NCBI GenBank assembly: GCA_026686805.1
Contig: GCA_026686805.1_3949.1
Length of the DNA: 52,601 nt
Source: a phage
Direction: 5' to 3' (one strand)
This document shows, piece by piece, positions 10,996 through 18,315 of the stretch. Both the position numbers and the translations under genes were made by a program. How positions within the stretch are numbered: the first letter of the stretch is position 1; each line of letters begins with the position of its first letter. The notes under the pieces are model-generated. The model ran no database searches. It was not told where the DNA came from and worked only from the letters and a program-made list of their open reading frames with translations.

Positions 10996-12411
10996 ATGAG
11001 CGAATTATTTAAACATGCGCACCTTCATGCAGGTCGAACTGAAAATGGTGCTGTAAACCATACTTCATCAATGTCTGCTCTTGTAGACTTTTACAAAGCT
11101 GCTGGTTCAAGCCGTAGCAACGTAGAAATCTTACCAGACCTGTTCTACAAAGCTTTGCGTGAGGATGTTGATGTTGTAGTTCGTATTTTGCTTCATATGC
11201 GAGATGTACGAGAAGGTATGGGTGAGCGTAAAGCCTTCAGAACTGTTTTACTTCAAGCGATTGAAGACAAAGTTTTAGAGCCTACGCAGGTTCTTCGCAT
11301 TATGGATAAGATTGCAGAACTTGGTCGTTTTGATGACTTCAAAATCTTCGTAGGTACTCGTTTCGAGACAGATGCCTTCAAACATCTAGAAGCAGCATTA
11401 CTAGACCCTGCAACAGCAGGTTTGGCGGCTAAGTGGTTACCACGAGTCAAACCACGTCATAAGCAGTTTGTAAAACGTTTCTGCAAGTTTGCCAACTTGA
11501 GTGAGAAAGAGTACCGCACACTGTTGTCTGCACTATCTGATACAGTTGAGCAAAAAATCTCTGCTAATGAGTTTGGTAAGATTGACTACAGTAAGATTCC
11601 TTCACTTGCTGCTGCACGTTACCAAAAACTGTTTAACCGCAAAGATGGAGAACGCTACAAAGCTTACATCGAGTCCTTATCAAAGGGTGAGGCTAAGATT
11701 AATGCTGGTGCTGTTTACCCATACGATGTAATTAAATCTGTTAAGCATGGTAATGCAGATGTTGCTAATGAGCAGTGGAAAGCACTACCAAACTGGATGG
11801 CAGAGGGTGAAAACATCTTGTGTATGTCTGATGTTTCAAGCTCAATGTCTTGGGTGAATTTTGGTTCAATTACTGCTCTTGATATTGGTGTTTCACTTGC
11901 ATTGTATGTAGCAGAACGTAATACAGGTTGCTTTAAGAATGAGTTGATGGTTTATTCAACAAACCCTCACTTCATCGAACTGAGTGGTGATTTACGAAAC
12001 CGTCATCGTCAGGTGATGCGACACGTTGAATATGGCTCAACTAACTTACAAGCAGCTTTTGACCGTATTCTTGAAACAGGTAAAAGAAACAACTTGACTC
12101 AGAAAGATATGCCAAGTAAGCTTATCATCTTCTCCGATATGGAGTTCAATCAGGTTGATGGAGCTAACGGTCGTACAAACTTTGAAGCAATTCGTAGTAA
12201 GTACAAAAAAGCTGGATACGAAATGCCTCAACTGGTATTCTGGTACTTAGCAAACCGTAATGGTACTTGCGAAGTGTCTGTTAAGGATAACGGTGTAGCA
12301 ATGGTATCTGGTTTTTCTCCAGCTACTTTAAAAGCTCTGCTTGGTGGTGAGAAGTTTGACCCAATCAGTGTAATGCTCAAAGCAGTAATGATTGACCGTT
12401 ATATCTGGTAA
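10996..12411 (+). CDS. von Willebrand factor A (vWA) domain protein with MIDAS motif, N-terminal helical domain
   Basis: DxSxS MIDAS-like motif (MSDVSSSMS) followed by hydrophobic strand ...LIIFSDMEFNQ; 471 aa; RBS present. Confidence 0.55.
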   Translation: MSELFKHAHLHAGRTENGAVNHTSSMSALVDFYKAAGSSRSNVEILPDLFYKALREDVDVVVRILLHMRDVREGMGERKAFRTVLLQAIEDKVLEPTQVLRIMDKIAELGRFDDFKIFVGTRFETDAFKHLEAALLDPATAGLAAKWLPRVKPRHKQFVKRFCKFANLSEKEYRTLLSALSDTVEQKISANEFGKIDYSKIPSLAAARYQKLFNRKDGERYKAYIESLSKGEAKINAGAVYPYDVIKSVKHGNADVANEQWKALPNWMAEGENILCMSDVSSSMSWVNFGSITALDIGVSLALYVAERNTGCFKNELMVYSTNPHFIELSGDLRNRHRQVMRHVEYGSTNLQAAFDRILETGKRNNLTQKDMPSKLIIFSDMEFNQVDGANGRTNFEAIRSKYKKAGYEMPQLVFWYLANRNGTCEVSVKDNGVAMVSGFSPATLKALLGGEKFDPISVMLKAVMIDRYIW

Positions 12412-12420
12412 AAAGTTTTA

Positions 12421-12457
12421 AAAAGGGTATTGACAATGTGTTTGATACCCTTTAATA
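12421..12457 (+). promoter_or_regulatory. sigma70-like promoter TTGACA-17-TAATAT embedded in a perfect 9-bp inverted repeat, upstream of the tRNA array
   Basis: -35 ttgaca 12429-12434, 17-nt spacer, -10 taatat 12452-12457; inverted repeat aaagggtat(12421-12429)/atacccttt(12444-12452). Confidence 0.45.
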
Positions 12458-12576
12458 TGTTCTACATAGAAACGAAACGAGAGCTTTTCTAAGATACTGA
12501 AAAATATTTTAAAAAAGTTCTTGACAACCACTAAAAAATAATGTTAAAGTGGTTACATAGAGTTTGAAAAGTTTAT

Positions 12577-12653
12577 CTCTGTTTAGCTCAGCTTGGTAGA
12601 GCGTTCCGTTTGGGGCGGTAAGGCCGGAGGTTCAAGTCCTCCAACAGAGACCA
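12577..12653 (+). tRNA. tRNA-Pro (anticodon TGG)
   Basis: hand-folded cloverleaf: acceptor ctctgtt/aacagag, D-arm gctcagcttggtagagc, anticodon loop ttTGGgg, T-loop ttcaagt, CCA encoded. Confidence 0.65.
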
Positions 12654-12660
12654 AATTAAT

Positions 12661-12738
12661 GTTCCAGTAGACAAAATGGTAAAGTCACCACTCTTTCAAA
12701 GTGGATATCTGAGGGTTCAAATCCCTTCTGGAACGCCA
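12661..12738 (+). tRNA. tRNA-Glu (anticodon TTC)
   Basis: acceptor gttccag/ctggaac, anticodon stem ccact/agtgg, loop ctTTCaa, T-loop ttcaaat, CCA encoded. Confidence 0.75.
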
Positions 12739-12745
12739 GTTTTGA

Positions 12746-12817
12746 CAGAAGACCAATTACAGCAAACTTAATCTACTCATCTGACACGAAATCGGACAAA
12801 GAAGATATTTGGTCTGG
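12746..12817 (+). repeat. bipartite spacer element copy a (CAGAAGACC-nnWTWCAGCAA ... GGTCTGG)
   Basis: seen directly; 5' block 12746-12765, 3' block 12811-12817; agacc/ggtct can pair. Confidence 0.5.
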
Positions 12818-12828
12818 TCATTGAGAAT

Positions 12829-12905
12829 TGCGGGTATAGAGAAAGGGCGTCTCACATGTCTCATTAGCATGGTATCGGCAGGTTCGACTCCTGCACCCGC
12901 CTCCA
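12829..12905 (+). tRNA. tRNA with CAT anticodon (Met or Ile-lysidine type)
   Basis: anticodon stem catgt/gcatg, loop ctCATta, T-arm gcagg-ttcgact-cctgc, CCA encoded; acceptor has a mismatch at one end so boundaries +/-1. Confidence 0.6.
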
Positions 12906-12911
12906 ATTTTG

Positions 12912-12971
12912 CAGAAGACCGTATTCAGCAACAAAATACTTTTTGCGGATAAAAGAAAAAACACGGTCTGG
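12912..12971 (+). repeat. bipartite spacer element copy b
   Basis: gcagaagaccgtattcagcaa ... acacggtctgg. Confidence 0.5.
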
Positions 12972-12982
12972 CAATGTATTAA

Positions 12983-13059
12983 GGTTAGGAAGCACATAAG
13001 GTATGTGCGGTCGCCTGTTAAGCGAATGGCACAGGGTTCGAATCCCTGACTAACCGCCA
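12983..13059 (+). tRNA. tRNA-Asn (anticodon GTT)
   Basis: acceptor ggttagg/actaacc, D-stem gcac/gtgc, anticodon loop ctGTTaa, T-arm caggg-ttcgaat-ccctg, CCA encoded. Confidence 0.7.
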
Positions 13060-13067
13060 AATTAAAT

Positions 13068-13155
13068 GTGTCGTTATCCCGTAGATGGTAGCGGTGGGGA
13101 CTGTAAATCCCTTGTCATTGAGACTCGGTAGGTTCGACTCCTACACGGCACACCA
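13068..13155 (+). tRNA. tRNA-Tyr (anticodon GTA), long variable arm
   Basis: acceptor gtgtcgt/acggcac, anticodon stem gggga/tccct, loop ctGTAaa, long variable arm, T-arm gtagg-ttcgact-cctac, CCA. Confidence 0.7.
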
Positions 13156-13160
13156 ATAAA

Positions 13161-13237
13161 GGCTATGTAGTTTAACTGGAGAAAATACTCCCCTGTCACG
13201 GGAGATGATGTGAGTTCAAGTCTCATCGTAGCCGCCA
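13161..13237 (+). tRNA. tRNA-Asp (anticodon GTC)
   Basis: acceptor ggctatg/cgtagcc, anticodon stem ctccc/gggag, loop ctGTCac, T-loop ttcaagt, CCA. Confidence 0.75.
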
Positions 13238-13298
13238 ATTTTGAGAGGGCTATTTAGCCCCTCCCTTAAAGAGTTCTTACGAGTATTCTTTAAAGGAG

Positions 13299-13372
13299 CA
13301 GAAGACCAAATACAGCAAGAATGTATGAAATTTCAAGCCAATTTAATTTTGAAAATTTAAAACTTGGTCTGG
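13299..13372 (+). repeat. bipartite spacer element copy c
   Basis: agcagaagaccaaatacagcaa ... aacttggtctgg. Confidence 0.5.
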
Positions 13373-13385
13373 CTCAACAAATTTA

Positions 13386-13517
13386 CAGAAGACCGTTTAC
13401 AGCAAAACTTAAACAATCTATTTCTCCGGTAAAGAAAAGGCGAAGGTTCGATTCCTTCACTCGGCAGATGTCGAGTTGGTGTAATGGTAGCACTTAAGAT
13501 GATAAACAACGGTCTGG
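13386..13517 (+). repeat. bipartite spacer element copy d, enclosing a tRNA-like relic
   Basis: acagaagaccgtttacagcaa ... aacaacggtctgg; interior holds T-arm/acceptor-like and acceptor/D-arm-like segments. Confidence 0.5.
13442..13495 (+). other. tRNA-like relic in reversed half order (T-arm + 3' acceptor strand immediately followed by complementary 5' acceptor strand + D-arm)
   Basis: gaagg-ttcgatt-ccttc + actcggc then gtcgagt + ggtgtaatggtagcac; no complete cloverleaf can be drawn. Confidence 0.35.
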
Positions 13518-13666
13518 TAATTATCTTTGTAGATAAGTTATTAAGCTTACCTGTGAGTATGCGACCACAAAGGGTGAAAGGGTAAATTCTAGATTTAAAC
13601 CCAACAAGGCACATCGCTACAGACCTTAAGCAAGTCTGGGTAGCTTATCTACAAAGGTAATTTAAT

Positions 13667-13742
13667 GGAAGTGTAGCAGAATGGTGATGCGGCAGACTTT
13701 TAATCTGACAGGCGATGGGTTCGAATCCCTCCACTTCTACCA
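13667..13742 (+). tRNA. tRNA-Lys (anticodon TTT)
   Basis: acceptor ggaagtg/cacttct, anticodon loop ctTTTaa, T-loop ttcgaat, CCA; T-stem weak in my fold. Confidence 0.6.
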
Positions 13743-13746
13743 AAAT

Positions 13747-13823
13747 GGTTCAGTCGCAGATAAGGTAATGCAAGGGTCTCATAAGCCCTATGAATGTGGG
13801 TTCAATTCCCATCTGAACCTCCA
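13747..13823 (+). tRNA. tRNA with CAT anticodon (Met, initiator or Ile-lysidine type)
   Basis: acceptor ggttcag/ctgaacc, anticodon stem agggt/gccct, loop ctCATaa, T-loop ttcaatt, CCA. Confidence 0.7.
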
Positions 13824-13831
13824 ATTTATCG

Positions 13832-14326
13832 GTGATACTTATGATTTGTGCTAACAAAGATTGCGGAAATGAAGCCGTTAAAGGTGGAAAATTTTGCTCA
13901 CGCTCTTGTTCTGCAAAAGTGAACAACAAGAAACACCCAAAGAGAAGTCAGGAAGGCTCTTGCCATTCATGCGGAAAGGTAACGCCAAAAGCAAGAAAAT
14001 ACTGTGACGAATGTATTTCAGGTGGAGTCATGAAAAAACATAAGACCCATCATGAAAAAAGCAAAGCTAAATCACTGCACGTTAAAAAGTCTCGTGATAG
14101 ACTGAAGAAGGCTTTAGTTGATTACAAGGGTGGTTGTTGTTCAATTTGTGGTTACAATAGGTGCATAAAGGCTCTAGAGTTTCACCACTTAGACCCTAAC
14201 ACAAAAGACTTCACAGTAGGTCAAAAACACTACTCACTGGCTACAATGCAGTCTGAAGTTGATAAGTGTGTCTTGCTTTGTGCAAATTGCCATAGAGAAG
14301 TACACGAAGGGGTAACAATGCTGTGA
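13832..14326 (+). CDS. HNH homing endonuclease (Cys-rich N-terminus, C-terminal HNH motif)
   Basis: C-terminal ...CSICGYNRC...LEFHHLDPNTKDF...CVLLCANCHREVHEG = HNH signature; embedded in tRNA array; stop codon overlaps start of tRNA-Ile. Confidence 0.75.
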   Translation: MILMICANKDCGNEAVKGGKFCSRSCSAKVNNKKHPKRSQEGSCHSCGKVTPKARKYCDECISGGVMKKHKTHHEKSKAKSLHVKKSRDRLKKALVDYKGGCCSICGYNRCIKALEFHHLDPNTKDFTVGQKHYSLATMQSEVDKCVLLCANCHREVHEGVTML

Positions 14327-14395
14327 AAGCACATATGGATGTGCATTCGGCTGATAACCGAAAGGTAGAAGGTTCGAATCCTTCTCACAGTACCA
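14320..14395 (+). tRNA. tRNA-Ile (anticodon GAT)
   Basis: acceptor gctgtga/tcacagt, D-stem gcac/gtgc, anticodon stem ttcgg/ccgaa, loop ctGATaa, T-arm gaagg-ttcgaat-ccttc, CCA. Confidence 0.75.
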
Positions 14396-14410
14396 ATTTC
14401 AATAAAGTTG

Positions 14411-14439
14411 TTGACATTGAGATGCGACTACTTTATAGT
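14411..14439 (+). promoter_or_regulatory. sigma70-like promoter TTGACA-17-TATAGT inside the tRNA array
   Basis: -35 ttgaca 14411-14416, 17-nt spacer, -10 tatagt 14434-14439. Confidence 0.5.
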
Positions 14440-14445
14440 AACCTT

Positions 14446-14610
14446 AGTTTTCGTTGCGTAGCGTCTATTTTGCAAATTTAAAATAAATGCAAACGACAAT
14501 GTTTTTCTGGCAGTAGCTTGATAGGCTAAACACCAGTGAGGTCTTCCAATCCCTCATCAAAGAATTTGGCGTACTAGCCCACGGTATGATTAATAAGGTG
14601 GGCATCTTTA
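14446..14610 (+). ncRNA. candidate small structured RNA downstream of promoter (no coding potential, no tRNA fold)
   Basis: hairpins tttgca/tgcaaa and gcccac(14577-14582)/gtgggc(14598-14603) followed by atcttt; purely structural inference. Confidence 0.2.
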
Positions 14611-14643
14611 AGGGCTTTCTAAGAGAGTCTTTAAAGATAATTA

Positions 14644-14725
14644 CGGGGCGTATCTCAGCGGTCTTCTAAACCGCCGTTAACCGAGTAAGTGGAGTATGCG
14701 GGTTCGAGTCCTGCCGCCTCGACCA
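14644..14725 (+). tRNA. atypical tRNA-like gene, possible tRNA-Arg (anticodon TCT); D-arm not placeable, 23-nt region between anticodon and T arms
   Basis: acceptor cggggcg/cgcctcg, perfect anticodon arm gcggt-ctTCTaa-accgc, T-arm gcggg-ttcgagt-cctgc, CCA; geometry non-canonical. Confidence 0.35.
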
Positions 14726-14868
14726 ATTTAGTTAGCAGATTACTTAGACGACCTTATCGGGTCTCCGTGTAAGGAGGTGGTCTGTATCTCATGTTTTCCA
14801 GAACATGTAAATAATCTGAGAAGGGGCTTTACAGTGTTGAGATAATACGGTAAGCTTCGAATTATAGT

Positions 14869-14951
14869 ATGGGACGATGTTAAGACTCTAAGGCATGAGC
14901 AACGGCTTCCAACACCGTTTCAAAGGGGTTCAACTCCTCCGTCCCATGCCA
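14869..14951 (+). tRNA. atypical tRNA-like gene, possible tRNA-Trp (anticodon CCA); 7 extra nt between acceptor and D-arm
   Basis: acceptor atgggac/gtcccat (7/7), anticodon arm acggc-ttCCAac-accgt, T-loop ttcaact, CCA. Confidence 0.35.
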
Positions 14952-14964
14952 AAGTCTTATTAGG

Positions 14965-15052
14965 GGTAGGTAGCGGCTAATGGTAGCCAAACTGTCTTGA
15001 AAACAGTTGCCACTGTAGAGATACGGTGAGGGTTCGACTCCTTTACTTACCG
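14965..15052 (+). tRNA. tRNA-Ser (anticodon TGA), long variable arm
   Basis: acceptor ggtaggt/acttacc, perfect anticodon stem actgt/acagt, loop ctTGAaa, 20-nt variable arm, T-arm gaggg-ttcgact-ccttt; CCA not encoded. Confidence 0.7.
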
Positions 15053-15310
15053 CCTAATAAGATTTTAAAGCCAAGCTTCATTCGGATGTTGCTTTGGTAT
15101 CCCTCGTGTATTGTCGTACACACTGATAAAACACCTAGTAGGTGTCACGGAGAAGAGATAATATCAAGCTCTCCAAAGGTTCTAGTCACCGGATTAAACA
15201 AGACTATGCAAAGACCTTTTTAGGTCTTTTTAGAGGGCTTCTAAGGTTATTACGGCTTGTTGTGGAACCTTGTTGCTTAGGTTCTTAGAAGTTCTCTAAA
15301 AAGATTTAAT

Positions 15311-15388
15311 GGGAGATTGACGGTAATTGGTAAACCTATCTCGCTTAGAACGAGATGTTTGAGGGTTCGAATCCCTTGTCTCCTACCA
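15311..15388 (+). tRNA. tRNA with TAG anticodon (Leu by anticodon), short variable loop
   Basis: acceptor gggagat/gtctcct, perfect anticodon stem tctcg/cgaga, loop ctTAGaa, T-loop ttcgaat, CCA; class I architecture unusual for Leu. Confidence 0.55.
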
Positions 15389-15395
15389 AATTAAT

Positions 15396-15471
15396 GCAGG
15401 TGTAGCAAAATGGTTATGCGGCTGACTCTTAATCAGTAAGACGATGGGTTCAATTCCCTCCACCTGTACCA
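15396..15471 (+). tRNA. tRNA-Lys (anticodon CTT)
   Basis: acceptor gcaggtg/cacctgt, anticodon stem gctga/tcagt, loop ctCTTaa, T-loop ttcaatt, CCA. Confidence 0.65.
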
Positions 15472-15476
15472 AAAAT

Positions 15477-15552
15477 GGGGTCATAGTTTATATGGTTAAA
15501 ATTCGAGTTTTGCAAACTTGGGAACTGAGTTCAATTCTCAGTGACTCCACCA
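15477..15552 (+). tRNA. tRNA-Ala (anticodon TGC)
   Basis: acceptor ggggtca/tgactcc, anticodon stem cgagt/acttg, loop ttTGCaa, T-loop ttcaatt, CCA. Confidence 0.65.
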
Positions 15553-15558
15553 ATTAGT

Positions 15559-15633
15559 GCATCCATAGTTTAAACGGGAAAATTACAGTCTTCCAAACTG
15601 AGGTTGAGGGTTCGATTCCCTCTGGATGCTCCA
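15559..15633 (+). tRNA. tRNA-Gly (anticodon TCC)
   Basis: acceptor gcatcca/tggatgc, anticodon loop ctTCCaa, T-arm gaggg-ttcgatt-ccctc, CCA. Confidence 0.7.
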
Positions 15634-15640
15634 AATTAAT

Positions 15641-15716
15641 GCTCCTATCGTATAATTGGCTATTACGGTTGCCTTGTAAGCAACTTATCAGGGTTCGAAT
15701 CCTTGTGGGAGCACCA
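15641..15716 (+). tRNA. tRNA-Thr (anticodon TGT)
   Basis: acceptor gctccta/tgggagc, perfect anticodon stem gttgc/gcaac, loop ctTGTaa, T-loop ttcgaat, CCA. Confidence 0.75.
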
Positions 15717-15718
15717 AT

Positions 15719-15811
15719 TCAGAGGTCAAGTGAAAGACCGCTGGTGTCAACTGAAGACCGTAACAAATTCCACGGAGTTGAGTTAGCGGCACAACTTCAG
15801 ACCTCTTTCAC
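15719..15811 (+). other. structured spacer element (inverted repeat agaggtc ... gacctct, internal gaagaccgtaacaaattc block)
   Basis: seen directly; related to the CAGAAGACC-containing spacer elements; function unknown. Confidence 0.3.
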
Positions 15812-15886
15812 ACTCGCTTAGTTTATATGGTAAAACATCACCCTTACAAGATGAAGAAAAAGGTTCAAGTCCTTTAGTGAGTACCA
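15812..15886 (+). tRNA. tRNA-Val (anticodon TAC)
   Basis: acceptor actcgct/agtgagt, anticodon stem tcacc/gatga (one mismatch), loop ctTACaa, T-arm aaagg-ttcaagt-ccttt, CCA. Confidence 0.65.
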
Positions 15887-15887
15887 T

Positions 15888-15965
15888 GTTCCAGTATCCC
15901 AATTGGCAGAGGATGCAAGCTCAAACCTTGTATTAGTGACGGTTCGAATCCGTCTTGGAACACCA
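15888..15965 (+). tRNA. tRNA with CAA anticodon (Leu by anticodon), short variable loop
   Basis: acceptor gttccag/ttggaac, anticodon stem gcaag/cttgt, loop ctCAAac, T-arm gacgg-ttcgaat-ccgtc, CCA. Confidence 0.55.
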
Positions 15966-15981
15966 ATTTTAGGAGAACACT

Positions 15982-16089
15982 ATGAGCAATAAGTCAATTG
16001 CAAAAAAGTTTAGAGCGTCATACCTAAACAGACGTAAAAACAAAGTTTGTGAAAAACTGTATGGTGTTCTCGTAGGTAAGCAGGATTAG
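15982..16089 (+). CDS. possible small ORF (35 aa, basic) overlapping the 5' end of tRNA-Arg
   Basis: AGGAG RBS 6 nt upstream of ATG; below the track's 60-aa cutoff; overlap with tRNA makes it doubtful. Confidence 0.2.
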   Translation: MSNKSIAKKFRASYLNRRKNKVCEKLYGVLVGKQD

Positions 16090-16155
16090 TTCAAATGGAT
16101 AGAGCAACAGTCTACGAAGCTGTTAATAGGGGTTCGAATCCCTTATCCTGCACCA
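16080..16155 (+). tRNA. tRNA-Arg (anticodon ACG)
   Basis: acceptor gcaggat/atcctgc, D-arm gttcaaatggatagagc, anticodon stem acagt/gctgt, loop ctACGaa, T-loop ttcgaat, CCA. Confidence 0.75.
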
Positions 16156-16174
16156 ATTTAAAGAGGCTATTTAG

Positions 16175-16732
16175 ATGAGATATTTGAAGTATGCTTCATG
16201 GATTTTCTTAGCTTTGTTAGAGCCATTTGCAGCAATCTTAGCAGTTATCTTAGCACCTTTTGTAGTTCCATTCTACAGTGAGAAGAAAGGACACTTACCT
16301 TTCGGGTTCAGATGGATGGAGACATATGACAACCCAATTGATGGTGATGAAGGTCACGTTAAAAGATGGGCTAATATCAGATGGATTGGTAAACTAGGTG
16401 TCTACATGCAAAGAGTCGGATGGCTCTGGAGAAACAAAGCTTATAACTTCTCTTACCATGTATTAGGAAGAGATGTAAAAGATGTTACTAAGTGGAAAGG
16501 TAATATCAACGTAAGTTCTGACCCTGAAGATAATCAGACAGGTTATCTACTAATGTGGAACAGTAATGCTTGGGGATTATTCGCTTTTATCCCATCAATT
16601 AAAATCTTTGGTAAACAATTTTACTGGAGAATTTATATTGGATGGAAACTAAAAAGTGTTGTCCCAGAAGAAAGAGCATTCTCAAGGGAAAGAGTTATGT
16701 TGGCATTCTTTATTCATCCACTGAGAAAGTAA
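16175..16732 (+). CDS. hypothetical protein with hydrophobic N-terminus (185 aa), embedded in tRNA array
   Basis: ORF from track; N-terminal hydrophobic segment WIFLALLEPFAAILAVILAPFVVPF. Confidence 0.5.
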   Translation: MRYLKYASWIFLALLEPFAAILAVILAPFVVPFYSEKKGHLPFGFRWMETYDNPIDGDEGHVKRWANIRWIGKLGVYMQRVGWLWRNKAYNFSYHVLGRDVKDVTKWKGNINVSSDPEDNQTGYLLMWNSNAWGLFAFIPSIKIFGKQFYWRIYIGWKLKSVVPEERAFSRERVMLAFFIHPLRK

Positions 16733-16740
16733 AGATTTAA

Positions 16741-16816
16741 AGGGGATTAGTTTACAAGGTTAAAACCTCGGTCTTTGAAATCGAAGAAGTTGGTTCAATT
16801 CCAACATCCCCCGCCA
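16741..16816 (+). tRNA. tRNA-Gln (anticodon TTG)
   Basis: acceptor aggggat/atccccc (1-72 mismatch), anticodon stem tcggt/atcga, loop ctTTGaa, T-arm gttgg-ttcaatt-ccaac, CCA. Confidence 0.65.
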
Positions 16817-16818
16817 AT

Positions 16819-16897
16819 GCTCCATTACTCCAATTGGCAGAGAGGCCAGACTTAAAATCTGTGTTATGTATCGGTTCGAATCCGATATGGAGTACCA
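16819..16897 (+). tRNA. tRNA with TAA anticodon (Leu by anticodon), short variable loop
   Basis: acceptor gctccat/atggagt, anticodon stem caga/tctg, loop ctTAAaa, T-arm atcgg-ttcgaat-ccgat, CCA. Confidence 0.5.
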
Positions 16898-16902
16898 AAT
16901 TT

Positions 16903-16978
16903 AGCGGCATAGCATAACTGGCAATGCAGCAGTCTCTGAAGCTGTCTTATTAAGGTTCAAATCCTTATGCCGCTGCCA
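16903..16978 (+). tRNA. tRNA-Gln (anticodon CTG)
   Basis: acceptor agcggca/tgccgct, D-stem gcat/atgc, anticodon loop ctCTGaa (stem with two G-U pairs), T-arm taagg-ttcaaat-cctta, CCA. Confidence 0.55.
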
Positions 16979-17009
16979 CTTCTAAGGATTCTTACGAGAG
17001 TCCTTAAAT

Positions 17010-17085
17010 GTGGCCTTATCATAAACGGTAATGACCCATGCTGTGAACATGGTCTATACGGGTTCAAATCCCGTAGGTCACCCCA
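17010..17085 (+). tRNA. tRNA-His (anticodon GTG)
   Basis: acceptor gtggcct/aggtcac, perfect anticodon stem ccatg/catgg, loop ctGTGaa, T-arm acggg-ttcaaat-cccgt, CCA. Confidence 0.7.
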
Positions 17086-17091
17086 ATTTAT

Positions 17092-17167
17092 AGTCCAAGT
17101 AGCTTATATGGTTAAAGCGCGTGTCTGAAAAACATGAGAAGAGTGTTCAAATCCCACTGGACTACCA
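17092..17167 (+). tRNA. tRNA-Phe (anticodon GAA)
   Basis: acceptor (t)agtcca/tggact(a), anticodon stem cgtgt/acatg, loop ctGAAaa, T-loop ttcaaat; 5' boundary +/-1. Confidence 0.6.
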
Positions 17168-17183
17168 ATTTCAAAGGTGCTTA

Positions 17184-17918
17184 ATGAAAGAGATGACAGA
17201 ACAAGGTAAGGAGATTTTCAATCTCTTAAAAACCGGTAAAGGGTTTTCTAACCCCCTTATTACTGGTGCAGCAGTTCTCGGTGGAACCGTAGCTGCCTCT
17301 ACATCACTTGTAAGCTCTATTAGCTCTGTATCAGACCCTACAGTAAAGGATAAGCTTGTTGCTGCTGGACTTACAACAGTTCTGCTTAACAGCTTTACCA
17401 CGAGTCTGACAAGCACTACATCAACTACCAAAACACTAACAGATTACGGTCAAAAATCCATTGATGAGTTTTCATCACGTATGCAGGTAGCAAAAGGTTA
17501 TTCTAATGTTATGGGTGCAGCAGGTGAACAAGTTGGCTGTACACCATTTAGTGGTATTATGGGTGTTGCTACAGAGTATGGTCAAAAAGCTATTGATACG
17601 ATTAACAGTGCACTAGATAGTGTTAATGGTGTGTTAAGTGACTTACAAGATGCTATTGACAAAGGTCTTGATACTATTTCTGATTTAGCTGAGCAAGCTG
17701 TTAGTAAGATTAATGAAGGTATTTCAAAAATTACAGCTTATGCAGATGAAGTTGTGCAGATGATTGAAGAAGAAGCTGCTCTTATTGCAGAGTACCTTAA
17801 AACGAATATCAATGGGTTCTTAGCAGGTATCTTACCAGACTGGTTTGATGATGCTTGTAAAACTGGTGTAATTGACACTATTGCAACACCAGAAATGAAG
17901 AACGCATTACAGAAATAA
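17184..17918 (+). CDS. hypothetical Ser/Thr-rich protein (244 aa), embedded in tRNA array
   Basis: track ORF 17121..17918 overlaps tRNA-Phe; ATG at 17184 has RBS aaaggtg and clears the tRNA. Confidence 0.5.
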   Translation: MKEMTEQGKEIFNLLKTGKGFSNPLITGAAVLGGTVAASTSLVSSISSVSDPTVKDKLVAAGLTTVLLNSFTTSLTSTTSTTKTLTDYGQKSIDEFSSRMQVAKGYSNVMGAAGEQVGCTPFSGIMGVATEYGQKAIDTINSALDSVNGVLSDLQDAIDKGLDTISDLAEQAVSKINEGISKITAYADEVVQMIEEEAALIAEYLKTNINGFLAGILPDWFDDACKTGVIDTIATPEMKNALQK

Positions 17919-17920
17919 AT

Positions 17921-18013
17921 GGAAGATTAACCCTAAAAGGTAAGGGAGCAGTTTGCTAAACTGCCAGTAGCTGAGAAATCGGTGTACCAGTTCAAGTCTG
18001 GTATCTTCCTCCA
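17921..18013 (+). tRNA. tRNA-Ser (anticodon GCT), long variable arm
   Basis: acceptor ggaagat/atcttcc, perfect anticodon stem gcagt/actgc, loop ttGCTaa, ~21-nt variable arm, T-arm accag-ttcaagt-ctggt, CCA. Confidence 0.75.
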
Positions 18014-18017
18014 ATTT

Positions 18018-18093
18018 GAATCCGTGACAGAAATGGCTATGTGCCTGTCTGCAAAACAGGTTTATAAGGGTTCGAGTCCCTTCGGATTCTCCA
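18018..18093 (+). tRNA. tRNA-Cys (anticodon GCA)
   Basis: acceptor gaatccg/cggattc, perfect anticodon stem cctgt/acagg, loop ctGCAaa, T-arm aaggg-ttcgagt-ccctt, CCA. Confidence 0.75.
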
Positions 18094-18255
18094 ATTTATT
18101 TTACTCTCTCTCAATTAAAATAATAATAATGCCCTGCTATAAGTATTCTTCCTTTCGCTACCGAAGAGTATTTTTAGACAGGGCTTTTTTACAGAGTTAT
18201 ACTTTATAAGAAGCCTTATACAGTATGTCTCTGACGTACATTGTGGTTTCTCCTT

Positions 18256-18279
18256 GACGGTCTCTGTACCGTCTTTTTT
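18256..18279 (+). terminator. intrinsic terminator after tRNA array
   Basis: hairpin gacggt-ctctgt-accgtc followed by T6; a second, looser hairpin (gccctg ... cagggc + T6, 18131-18190) lies upstream. Confidence 0.5.
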
Positions 18280-18315
18280 AAGGGGAAACATGATTAACTA
18301 TTTGGAGAAAACATA

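Follow-up and report, generated by a model that had tools for sequence, protein, structure and literature searches.

Three leucine tRNA genes without a long variable arm in the tRNA cluster of a Felix O1-like phage

Three tRNA-Leu genes with short variable loops

The stretch of phage DNA analysed here (the window; 52,601 nucleotides, contig GCA_026686805.1_3949.1 of the GenBank assembly GCA_026686805.1) is a segment of a Felixounavirus (Ounavirinae) genome, i.e. of a Felix O1-like myophage, with a GC content of about 39%. In a megablast search against 50,697 phage records, positions 12400-18300 were 98.4% identical to Escherichia phage garuso and 96.2% identical to Salmonella phage Felix O1. 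ARAGORN detected 25 tRNA genes between positions 12577 and 18093, all on the plus strand, 23 of which were supported by the Rfam model RF00005 at its gathering threshold; Rfam added one tRNA-like match that was not called by ARAGORN. Three genes of this cluster carry the leucine anticodons UAG, CAA and UAA but have variable loops of only a few nucleotides, and these genes are the subject of this report (Table 1). They sit 1-7 nt from the adjoining tRNA genes and are therefore probably parts of polycistronic precursors.

Table 1 Position and properties of the three tRNA-Leu genes and of other features in and next to the tRNA cluster of the window. ORF, open reading frame.
Feature	Position	Strand	Properties
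tRNA-Leu(UAG), type I	15311-15388	+	78 nt; variable loop TGTTT (5 nt); G1-U72; A73-CCA (ARAGORN)
tRNA-Leu(CAA), type I	15888-15965	+	78 nt; variable loop ATTAGT (6 nt); A73-CCA (ARAGORN)
tRNA-Leu(UAA), type I	16819-16897	+	79 nt; variable loop GTTATGT (7 nt); G1-U72; A73-CCA; A36A37A38 (ARAGORN)
tRNA gene cluster	12577-18093	+	25 tRNAs, with small ORFs between them, an HNH endonuclease gene and several DUF-domain proteins
tRNA-Ser(UGA)	14965-15054	+	90 nt; 20-nt variable arm; class II internal control
tRNA-Ser(GCU)	17921-18013	+	93 nt; 21-nt variable arm; internal control
tRNA-Tyr(GUA)	13068-13155	+	88 nt; 15-nt variable arm; internal control
tRNA-Glu(UUC)	12661-12738	+	5' acceptor strand GTTCCAG; G73
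ORF upstream of the cluster	10996-12411	+	471 amino acids; Pfam DUF2828 and DUF7788; PHROG 850 'RNA-binding protein'
HNH homing-endonuclease ORF	13832-14326	+	PHROG 2255
tmRNA-like matches	14337-14642	+	sub-threshold Rfam matches: permuted tmRNA 23.6 bits, tmRNA 15.4 bits
Arg-like element	14644-14722	+	Rfam tRNA match, 31.7 bits; anticodon loop CUUCUAA (UCU, Arg)
Hairpin-forming stretch	15216-15315	+	spurious microRNA-precursor matches, 32.8 bits

Throughout this report, a tRNA-Leu is called type I, or arm-less, if it combines a Leu anticodon with a variable loop of less than about 10 nt and if its scaffold is Leu-like in other respects. The three genes are of this type and lack the long class II variable arm, with loop lengths that assume the standard anticodon stem of 5 bp. 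The same software detected the long variable regions of the two tRNA-Ser genes and of the tRNA-Tyr gene in the same cluster, and the short loops of the Leu genes are therefore not a habit of the software. The scores against RF00005 were 44.5, 44.0 and 47.5 bits for the UAG, CAA and UAA genes, respectively, with E-values of 5e-8 to 4e-7 and a gathering score of 29. A first-pass annotation, made by a model from the letters of the DNA, had reported three tRNAs at these coordinates with the anticodons TAG, CAA and TAA and with variable loops of 5-8 nt; coordinates and anticodons were reproduced exactly by ARAGORN, and the loops of 5, 6 and 7 nt fall into this range. It had also considered that its folds might be mis-registered. 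This can be discarded, as ARAGORN, Rfam, minimum-free-energy folding and the covariation over 56 related genes described below all returned short loops, and no program assigned other anticodons or identified long arms.

The D arms of the three genes are not alike. The CAA gene has a 3-bp D stem (TCC/GGA) and an 11-nt D loop of the sequence CAATTGGCAGA, and the UAA gene likewise combines a 3-bp stem with an 11-nt loop CAATTGGCAGA. The D arm of the UAG gene is atypical and shifted, with three bases between the acceptor and the D stem, a stem of four positions (C-U mismatch, G-C, G-C, U-A) and a 9-nt loop AATTGGTAA. The register was in question for this gene only, since the Rfam match begins one base later, at position 15312, and leads to a 6-bp acceptor stem with U73. 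We rejected this register in favour of the one by ARAGORN, with a 7-bp acceptor stem and A73-CCA, as the latter cloverleaf is the minimum-free-energy fold (-19.6 kcal/mol) and fits the homologues; the variable loop measures 5 nt under both registers. A D arm drawn by homology to T5-like genes (A10-U25, a C11-C24 mismatch and G12-C23) was tried as well and rejected, with a folding energy of -12.2 kcal/mol that is 7.4 kcal/mol worse than that of the shifted register.

Leucine identity elements and isotype assignment

The elements by which the leucyl-tRNA synthetase (LeuRS) of Escherichia coli recognizes tRNA-Leu have been published as A73, A14, A15-U48, G18G19, A20a and U54-A58, and both the anticodon and the long arm were found to be dispensable (PMC9976931, PMC6614811). 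For the arm, the respective work is that of Asahara (1993/1998) and Larkin (2002), as summarised in PMC9976931. All three phage genes carry A73-CCA, U8, A14, A15 with U48, G18G19 and A20a, and their T loop is TTCGAAT with U54-A58. Thus, the three genes keep every published recognition element of E. coli LeuRS outside the arm, and, since the arm is dispensable for this enzyme according to the published work, its presence marks the class of a tRNA-Leu but not its identity.

For comparison, the tRNA-Leu genes leuQ/P/V, leuZ, leuX and leuW of E. coli K-12 are 85-87 nt long and have a 3-bp D stem, U48, A73 and an 11-nt D loop of the form (G/A)AAT(T/C)GGTAGA (E. coli comparison form GAATTGGTAGA). 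The isoacceptors leuW (UAG), leuX (CAA) and leuZ (UAA) share with the phage genes their anticodons, A73, U8-A14, A15-U48, G18G19 and A20a, the 3-bp D stem and 11-nt D loop in the case of the CAA and UAA genes and, in the case of leuZ, G1-U72. They differ from them in their arms of 12-15 nt. In addition, the host UAG isoacceptor has the anticodon loop UUUAGGU with G37, the site of 1-methylguanosine (m1G37), whereas the phage gene has the loop CUUAGAA with A37 in this place.

In order to describe the scaffold as a whole, we used a signature of six features (A73, U8, a 3-bp D stem, a D loop of 10-12 nt, A14A15 and U48), which among the tRNAs gathered for this analysis was found in 46 of 50 type I and 115 of 138 type II tRNA-Leu but in only 7 of 696 non-Leu tRNAs. 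The CAA and UAA genes carry this signature in full. Furthermore, a covariance model (family model R1) was built from 52 arm-less tRNA-Leu genes of other sources, with no sequences of the window among them. This model placed the three genes first to third among the 25 tRNAs of the cluster with 76.2 (UAA), 75.8 (CAA) and 65.7 bits (UAG), and the margin over the next tRNA was about 10 bits for the UAA and CAA genes and 0.4 bits for the UAG gene. Isotype scoring with tRNAscan-SE has been published for the homologues in phage Sf14, of which the CAA gene is 100% identical to the one of the window; Leu was the top isotype in all three cases, with scores of 67.4, 49.1 and 60.2 (PMC12482277). The retained Leu elements, the ranking by R1 and these published scores agree in favouring one of the options raised in the first-pass annotation, namely that the genes encode unusual leucine tRNAs.

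The tRNA ranked next by R1 is the tRNA-Glu(UUC) of the cluster (65.3 bits). It has its 5' acceptor strand in common with Leu(CAA) and resembles it also in the 3-bp D stem, the 11-nt D loop and a 6-nt variable loop, but differs from it in G73 and in the anticodon.

Conservation and codon usage

The three genes are conserved far beyond the window. For the UAA gene, 216 phage records from the genera Felixounavirus, Suspvirus and Mooglevirus show an identity of at least 99%, and the CAA gene is at least 99% identical in 160 phage records and 100% identical in Felix O1, wV8, Moogle, SUSP2 and Sf14. The UAG gene matches 343 phage records, among them T5-like phages at about 76% identity, whose homologues have a canonical Leu D arm, the same T arm and compensated acceptor stems. 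It occurs in two alleles: the gene of the window and that of Shigella phage Sf13 differ only by a swap of the whole anticodon stem (TCTCG/CGAGA to CCATC/GTTGG), in which four pairs are compensated and the fifth is a U-U mismatch common to the T5-like genes. The Sf13 stem (L251:301-378) with its U30-U40 mismatch resembles the stem of the T5-like Tequintavirus GEC_vB_N3 (L249:3997-4073), a pattern which suggests recombination of tRNA modules between phage families. No match to the Leu genes was found in the chromosomes and prophages of 5,426 complete E. coli genomes. The three genes are under strong purifying selection that preserves their structure.

The leucine codons of the long ORFs in the window are distributed over TTA (27.8%), CTT (26.3%), TTG (15.3%), CTA (12.3%), CTG (12.3%) and CTC (6.1%). 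UUA, UUG, CUA and CUG together make up 68% of them, and the Felix O1 genome paper had already singled out Leu[TTA] among the codons likely to gain from phage tRNAs. The TTA, TTG and CTA codons of the terminase gene align with Leu or other hydrophobic residues in the homologues of Erwinia and Acinetobacter phages, as do CTT, CTC and CTG, and this alignment gave no sign of a reassignment of Leu codons.

Arm-less tRNA-Leu genes in other phages and in bacteria

When the three genes were used as BLAST queries, arm-less tRNA-Leu were also found in cultured phages of unrelated groups. These were Aeromonas phage AhP_Mru1 (Demerecviridae; UAG, CAA and UAA, 77 nt each), the T5-like Tequintavirus GEC_vB_N3 (77 nt), Salmonella phage 6S (Demerecviridae; 77 nt, plus a long-arm gene of 86 nt), Erwinia phage phiEa104 (Kolesnikvirus; 77, 78 and 77 nt), Acinetobacter phage phiAbaA1 (78 nt), Lactobacillus phage LpeD (76, 77 and 74 nt), Enterococcus phage Bop (76 nt, plus a long-arm gene of 86 nt) and Mycobacterium prophage prophiGD54-2 (76 and 76 nt). 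T5 itself was considered as a further example but rejected, as its sole tRNA-Leu is of type II (85 nt). Two of the arm-less Leu clusters contain other unusual tRNAs, i.e. a tRNA with a UCA anticodon that is annotated as a suppressor in AhP_Mru1 (L001:796-875) and, in LpeD, a tRNA whose anticodon was called with four bases (tttg; L003:5574-5645).

For an arm-neutral sample, IMG/VR and GTDB were scanned with a pattern of a Leu D loop, an anticodon and GTTC that allowed for any variable region of 4-25 nt, and ARAGORN was run on the 120 loci listed per collection; with one D-loop motif and isotypes assigned by anticodon, the percentages from this sample are indicative and no census. A variable region of at most 9 nt was found in 41 of 179 viral compared to 7 of 122 bacterial tRNA-Leu (Fisher p = 4e-5) or, counted by locus, in 27 of 118 viral and 4 of 112 bacterial loci, and it measured exactly 5 nt in 31 of the 41 viral cases. 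The arm-less fraction grew with the number of tRNAs per locus, from 1/40 at loci with 1-2 tRNAs to 24/59 at loci with at least 11 (p = 1e-4). The first-pass annotation is right in that a long arm is the norm for bacterial tRNA-Leu, yet the short form is common among phage-encoded tRNA-Leu. In contrast, all tRNA-Ser (28/28) and tRNA-Tyr (9/9) in the loci with arm-less Leu kept their long arms, i.e. the loss of the arm is specific to Leu in phage tRNA clusters.

The arm-less genes are well defined as a family. All 41 viral genes have A73, U8 and U48, and a 3-bp D stem was present in all 40 that could be parsed; these constants hold also in 16 viral arm-less genes that had not been selected by the anchor pattern, and A14 and A15 are invariant in the alignments of arm-less Leu. 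When 56 distinct arm-less genes were aligned, 98.2% of the cloverleaf cells were paired and 19 of 20 pairs changed on both sides, with a covariation score of 1.056 compared to at most 0.19 for controls with slid partners.

Chromosomal arm-less tRNA-Leu genes were found in Gordonia (L145:491-566), in Herbiconiux (L181:2732-2806), in a metagenome-assembled genome of the Planctomycetota with three genes in tandem (CAG, UAA and GAG; L193:3550-3794) and in one further genome with two genes (L237:4733-5008). These genes have A73, U48 and a D arm of the form CC-CAATTGGCAGA-GG or a close variant thereof. Bacterial type I tRNA-Leu is therefore not confined to Streptomyces.

Predicted charging and decoding

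In our view, the three genes quite likely encode functional leucine tRNAs of the arm-less kind that are leucylated by the host LeuRS and supplement the decoding of leucine codons. The family of arm-less tRNA-Leu of which they are members is large, shows covariation and is over-represented in the tRNA clusters of phages. The LeuRS of the host (E. coli or Salmonella) would charge them with leucine by reading A73 and the core formed by the D loop, the T loop and the Levitt pair, and would depend neither on the anticodon nor, by published mutagenesis, on the long arm. The charged tRNAs would then decode UUA and UUG (UAA), UUG (CAA) as well as CUA and CUG (UAG) and, in a host built around CUG, would supplement the supply during infection for the codons TTA, TTG and CTA that are favoured by the AT-rich phage. 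The seryl-tRNA synthetase (SerRS) cannot mischarge these tRNAs because it needs a long arm. For the same reason, the phage tRNA-Ser keep their long arms. The phage tRNA-Tyr keeps its arm, too. Since LeuRS ignores the arm and SerRS requires it, only Leu can lose the arm without losing its identity. For this phage, the three tRNAs are probably ordinary working parts.

Several points weigh against this explanation. In published work, the type I tRNA-Leu(CAA) of Streptomyces was no substrate for E. coli LeuRS, which is described there as specific for type II (PMC6614811). The Streptomyces tRNA has C48, whereas U48 is present in every phage gene examined, and we infer that the failure was likely due to C48 in place of the required A15-U48 pair. 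In crystals, the C-terminal domain of E. coli LeuRS contacts the arm residues 47f-47i (PMC6614811), and the efficiency of charging of an arm-less tRNA could therefore be reduced. Both the charging by LeuRS and the expression of the three tRNAs are predictions. The UAG gene is the least typical of the three in terms of its D arm and its narrow lead over tRNA-Glu in R1, and its Sf14 homologue (90% identical) scored only 1.7 bits above Ile2 (PMC12482277). Finally, two classifiers of low power did not place the three genes in Leu. In a nearest-neighbour test by global alignment to 1,032 reference tRNAs, with arms excised and anticodons masked, Leu made up 8 of 10 (UAG), 3 of 10 (CAA) and 5 of 10 neighbours (UAA), but most control phage tRNAs were also misassigned, and the test has little power here. 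The other classifier, a naive-Bayes one based on structural positions, favoured Lys for each of the three genes and ranked Leu second for UAA and third for CAA; despite a leave-one-out accuracy of 85% on the reference set, it assigned no more than 10 of the 22 non-Leu tRNAs in the window correctly, and its Leu class, trained on GC-rich type II genes, penalises the AT-rich stems of the phage.

Comparison with known tRNA-Leu

One of the closest known counterparts is the type I tRNA-Leu(CAA) of Streptomyces coelicolor, which is of the bacterial type and has a 5-nt variable loop and U8-A14 as an identity element (PMC6614811). Loops of the form NCAGU, similar to its loop ACAGC, occur in one phage and bacterial subfamily that comprises genes of phiEa104, LpeD, Bop, Gordonia and Herbiconiux. 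The S. coelicolor tRNA differs by its C48, as the phage genes examined all have U48 paired with A15. Moreover, A73 is no identity element for S. coelicolor LeuRS, and charging needs a Streptomyces-specific feature of the leucine-specific domain of this enzyme (PMC6614811), whereas the phage genes must work with an enterobacterial LeuRS, of the kind that in E. coli does not charge the S. coelicolor tRNA. The animal mitochondrial tRNA-Leu(UUR/CUN) are similar with regard to a short variable loop and to A73 and A14 as identity elements, but they are structurally relaxed and served by a dedicated mitochondrial LeuRS, whereas the phage genes form canonical, well-paired bacterial cloverleaves with G18G19 and the T loop TTCGAAT. 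Thus, the three phage genes differ from the Streptomyces and mitochondrial types by the full enterobacterial identity set (U48, A73) and by a LeuRS that has been described as long-arm-only. An engineered counterpart is the minimalist E. coli tRNA-Leu (Larkin et al. 2002, as cited in PMC9976931), an arm-less construct reported there to be still a substrate of LeuRS if A73 and the interactions between D and T loop are intact. By the same account, this laboratory construct lacks also the anticodon arm, whereas the phage genes are natural, complete and presumably functional on the ribosome.

The annotation of the three genes as tRNA-Leu dates back to the Felix O1 genome paper, in which their variable arm is not mentioned; the arm is likewise absent from the Sf14 tRNA study (PMC12482277) and from a global survey of viral tRNA genes. 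In the literature searched, type I tRNA-Leu was described only from mitochondria and some Streptomyces (2019 study in Nucleic Acids Research, PMC6614811). A full-text search, with subscription-only papers outside its scope, returned no description of an arm-less phage tRNA-Leu, and the phrase "type I tRNALeu" was found in a single paper, the one on Streptomyces. According to textbooks and recent reviews, bacterial tRNA-Leu always has a long variable arm, and isotype models and annotation pipelines trained on cellular tRNAs rate such genes as only marginally Leu. The arm-less form, common in phage tRNA clusters with about one fifth of the tRNA-Leu in our viral sample, is under-reported. If the host LeuRS charges the three tRNAs, they would prove by a natural example that enterobacterial LeuRS can do without the arm in vivo, and could serve directly as substrates in studies of the function of the arm.

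Alternative explanations and the loss of the variable arm

A different question is why the arm was lost. One idea, which is compatible with the function proposed above but which we regard as rather unlikely, is counter-defence: long class II arms would be a handle for anti-phage nucleases and nucleotidyltransferase toxins, and arm-less tRNA-Leu would be replacement adaptors that stay intact when the tRNA-Leu of the host is attacked. Of the class II tRNAs, only tRNA-Leu could take this route, as no other synthetase for such tRNAs than LeuRS ignores the arm. A preference for long-armed class II tRNAs has been described for AbiEii and MenT3 (bioRxiv 10.64898/2026.01.19.700257), and the idea also fits the enrichment of arm-less Leu in phages and in large tRNA clusters, its occurrence in at least five unrelated phage lineages, and the anticodon loop of Leu(UAG), which differs from that of the host as well (C32, A37, A38). 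A precedent for the variable arm as a target of defence is the tRNA-Tyr of T5, which resists retron-Eco7 (PMC13096335). Like the three phage genes, it belongs to a class II family and has a variable region unlike that of the host; in contrast to them, its arm is altered rather than deleted, the amino acid is a different one, and the function has been demonstrated, whereas here it is hypothesised. On the other hand, we found no defence system with a proven action on the variable arm of tRNA-Leu, a type II tRNA-Leu is retained by many phages including T5, and nothing in the window ties the three tRNAs to a defence. The enrichment could equally reflect relaxed constraint together with a deletion bias in small AT-rich genomes, which would suffice to explain the loss of the arm. 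If the counter-defence idea is true, undiscovered defence systems that target the arm of tRNA-Leu should exist. The three genes make it possible to test in a concrete case whether phages and tRNA-targeting defences contend over variable arms.

The other explanations concern the function of the tRNAs rather than the history of the arm. According to the first of them, which had been raised in the first-pass annotation, the Leu anticodons sit on the scaffold of another isotype, so that the tRNAs are charged with another amino acid or poorly, for deliberate mis-incorporation or as regulators. The isotype margins of the profiles are small, with Lys, Ile2 and Arg near Leu in the published Sf14 scores, the naive-Bayes classifier preferred Lys, and the D arm of Leu(UAG) resembles a class I D arm. 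Against this, the synthetases for Lys, Arg, Ile, Met, Val and Phe need anticodon bases that are absent here (established rules; PMC9976931). The G3:U70 pair that specifies Ala to the alanyl-tRNA synthetase is missing, as the 3-70 pair is G-C in the UAG and U-A in the CAA and UAA genes. Ser is not specified either, since SerRS requires the long arm and, as published, reads also G73, whereas the three genes have short loops and A73; the discriminators of the tRNA-Ser in the window are G (UGA) and T (GCU). The full Leu-specific signature of the CAA and UAA genes and the alignment of TTA, TTG and CTA codons with Leu or other hydrophobic residues in homologues also speak for leucine. Mis-incorporation would affect 55% of the Leu codons at a considerable cost, and yet the three genes hardly vary. 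We therefore consider a scaffold of another identity very improbable.

No more credible is a role outside translation, in which the tRNAs would e.g. act as decoys that divert tRNA-targeting enzymes or would give rise to regulatory fragments. Nothing specific points to it apart from the odd tRNA-like elements in the cluster and the gene of a predicted RNA-binding protein just upstream, whereas the full determinants of aminoacylation and the CCA end are conserved and the set of anticodons fits the Leu codons preferred by the phage. That the genes are decaying pseudogenes or software artefacts can practically be dismissed: although the Felix O1 paper marked two other tRNAs of the cluster as pseudo and the Leu genes have Cove and Rfam scores in the middle of the range, they are 100% conserved across genera, show compensatory changes in their stems, pair in all stems and have intact CCA ends.

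Other features in the tRNA cluster

The HNH homing-endonuclease ORF is embedded within the tRNA cluster. Similar endonucleases are present in the tRNA regions of T5 and T4-type phages. The tRNA content near this ORF varies between relatives, with 22 tRNAs reported for Felix O1 compared to 25 here. The tRNA-like element downstream of it, which is the match by Rfam that ARAGORN did not call, has a D arm shortened to about 4 nt and, at the position of the variable loop, a region of about 20 nt. Its location agrees with the 'Arg_TCT' tRNA listed for phage Sf14, and it may be an Arg tRNA that is D-arm-less or otherwise aberrant. Between this element and the preceding tRNA-Ile, the tmRNA-like matches may indicate a structured non-coding RNA or be noise.

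The ORF directly upstream of the cluster codes for the predicted RNA-binding protein, which could be a partner of the tRNAs or of the odd tRNA-like RNAs. Its DUF2828 domain is presumably a relative of the TROVE/Ro60 fold. Leu(UAG) is directly preceded by a long hairpin-forming stretch, and ahead of this stretch a stem with a T run that resembles a terminator was read by eye near 15205-15235, although it was not listed by a terminator scan. The hairpin region may be a boundary between transcription units or a processing site at the start of a second group of tRNAs.

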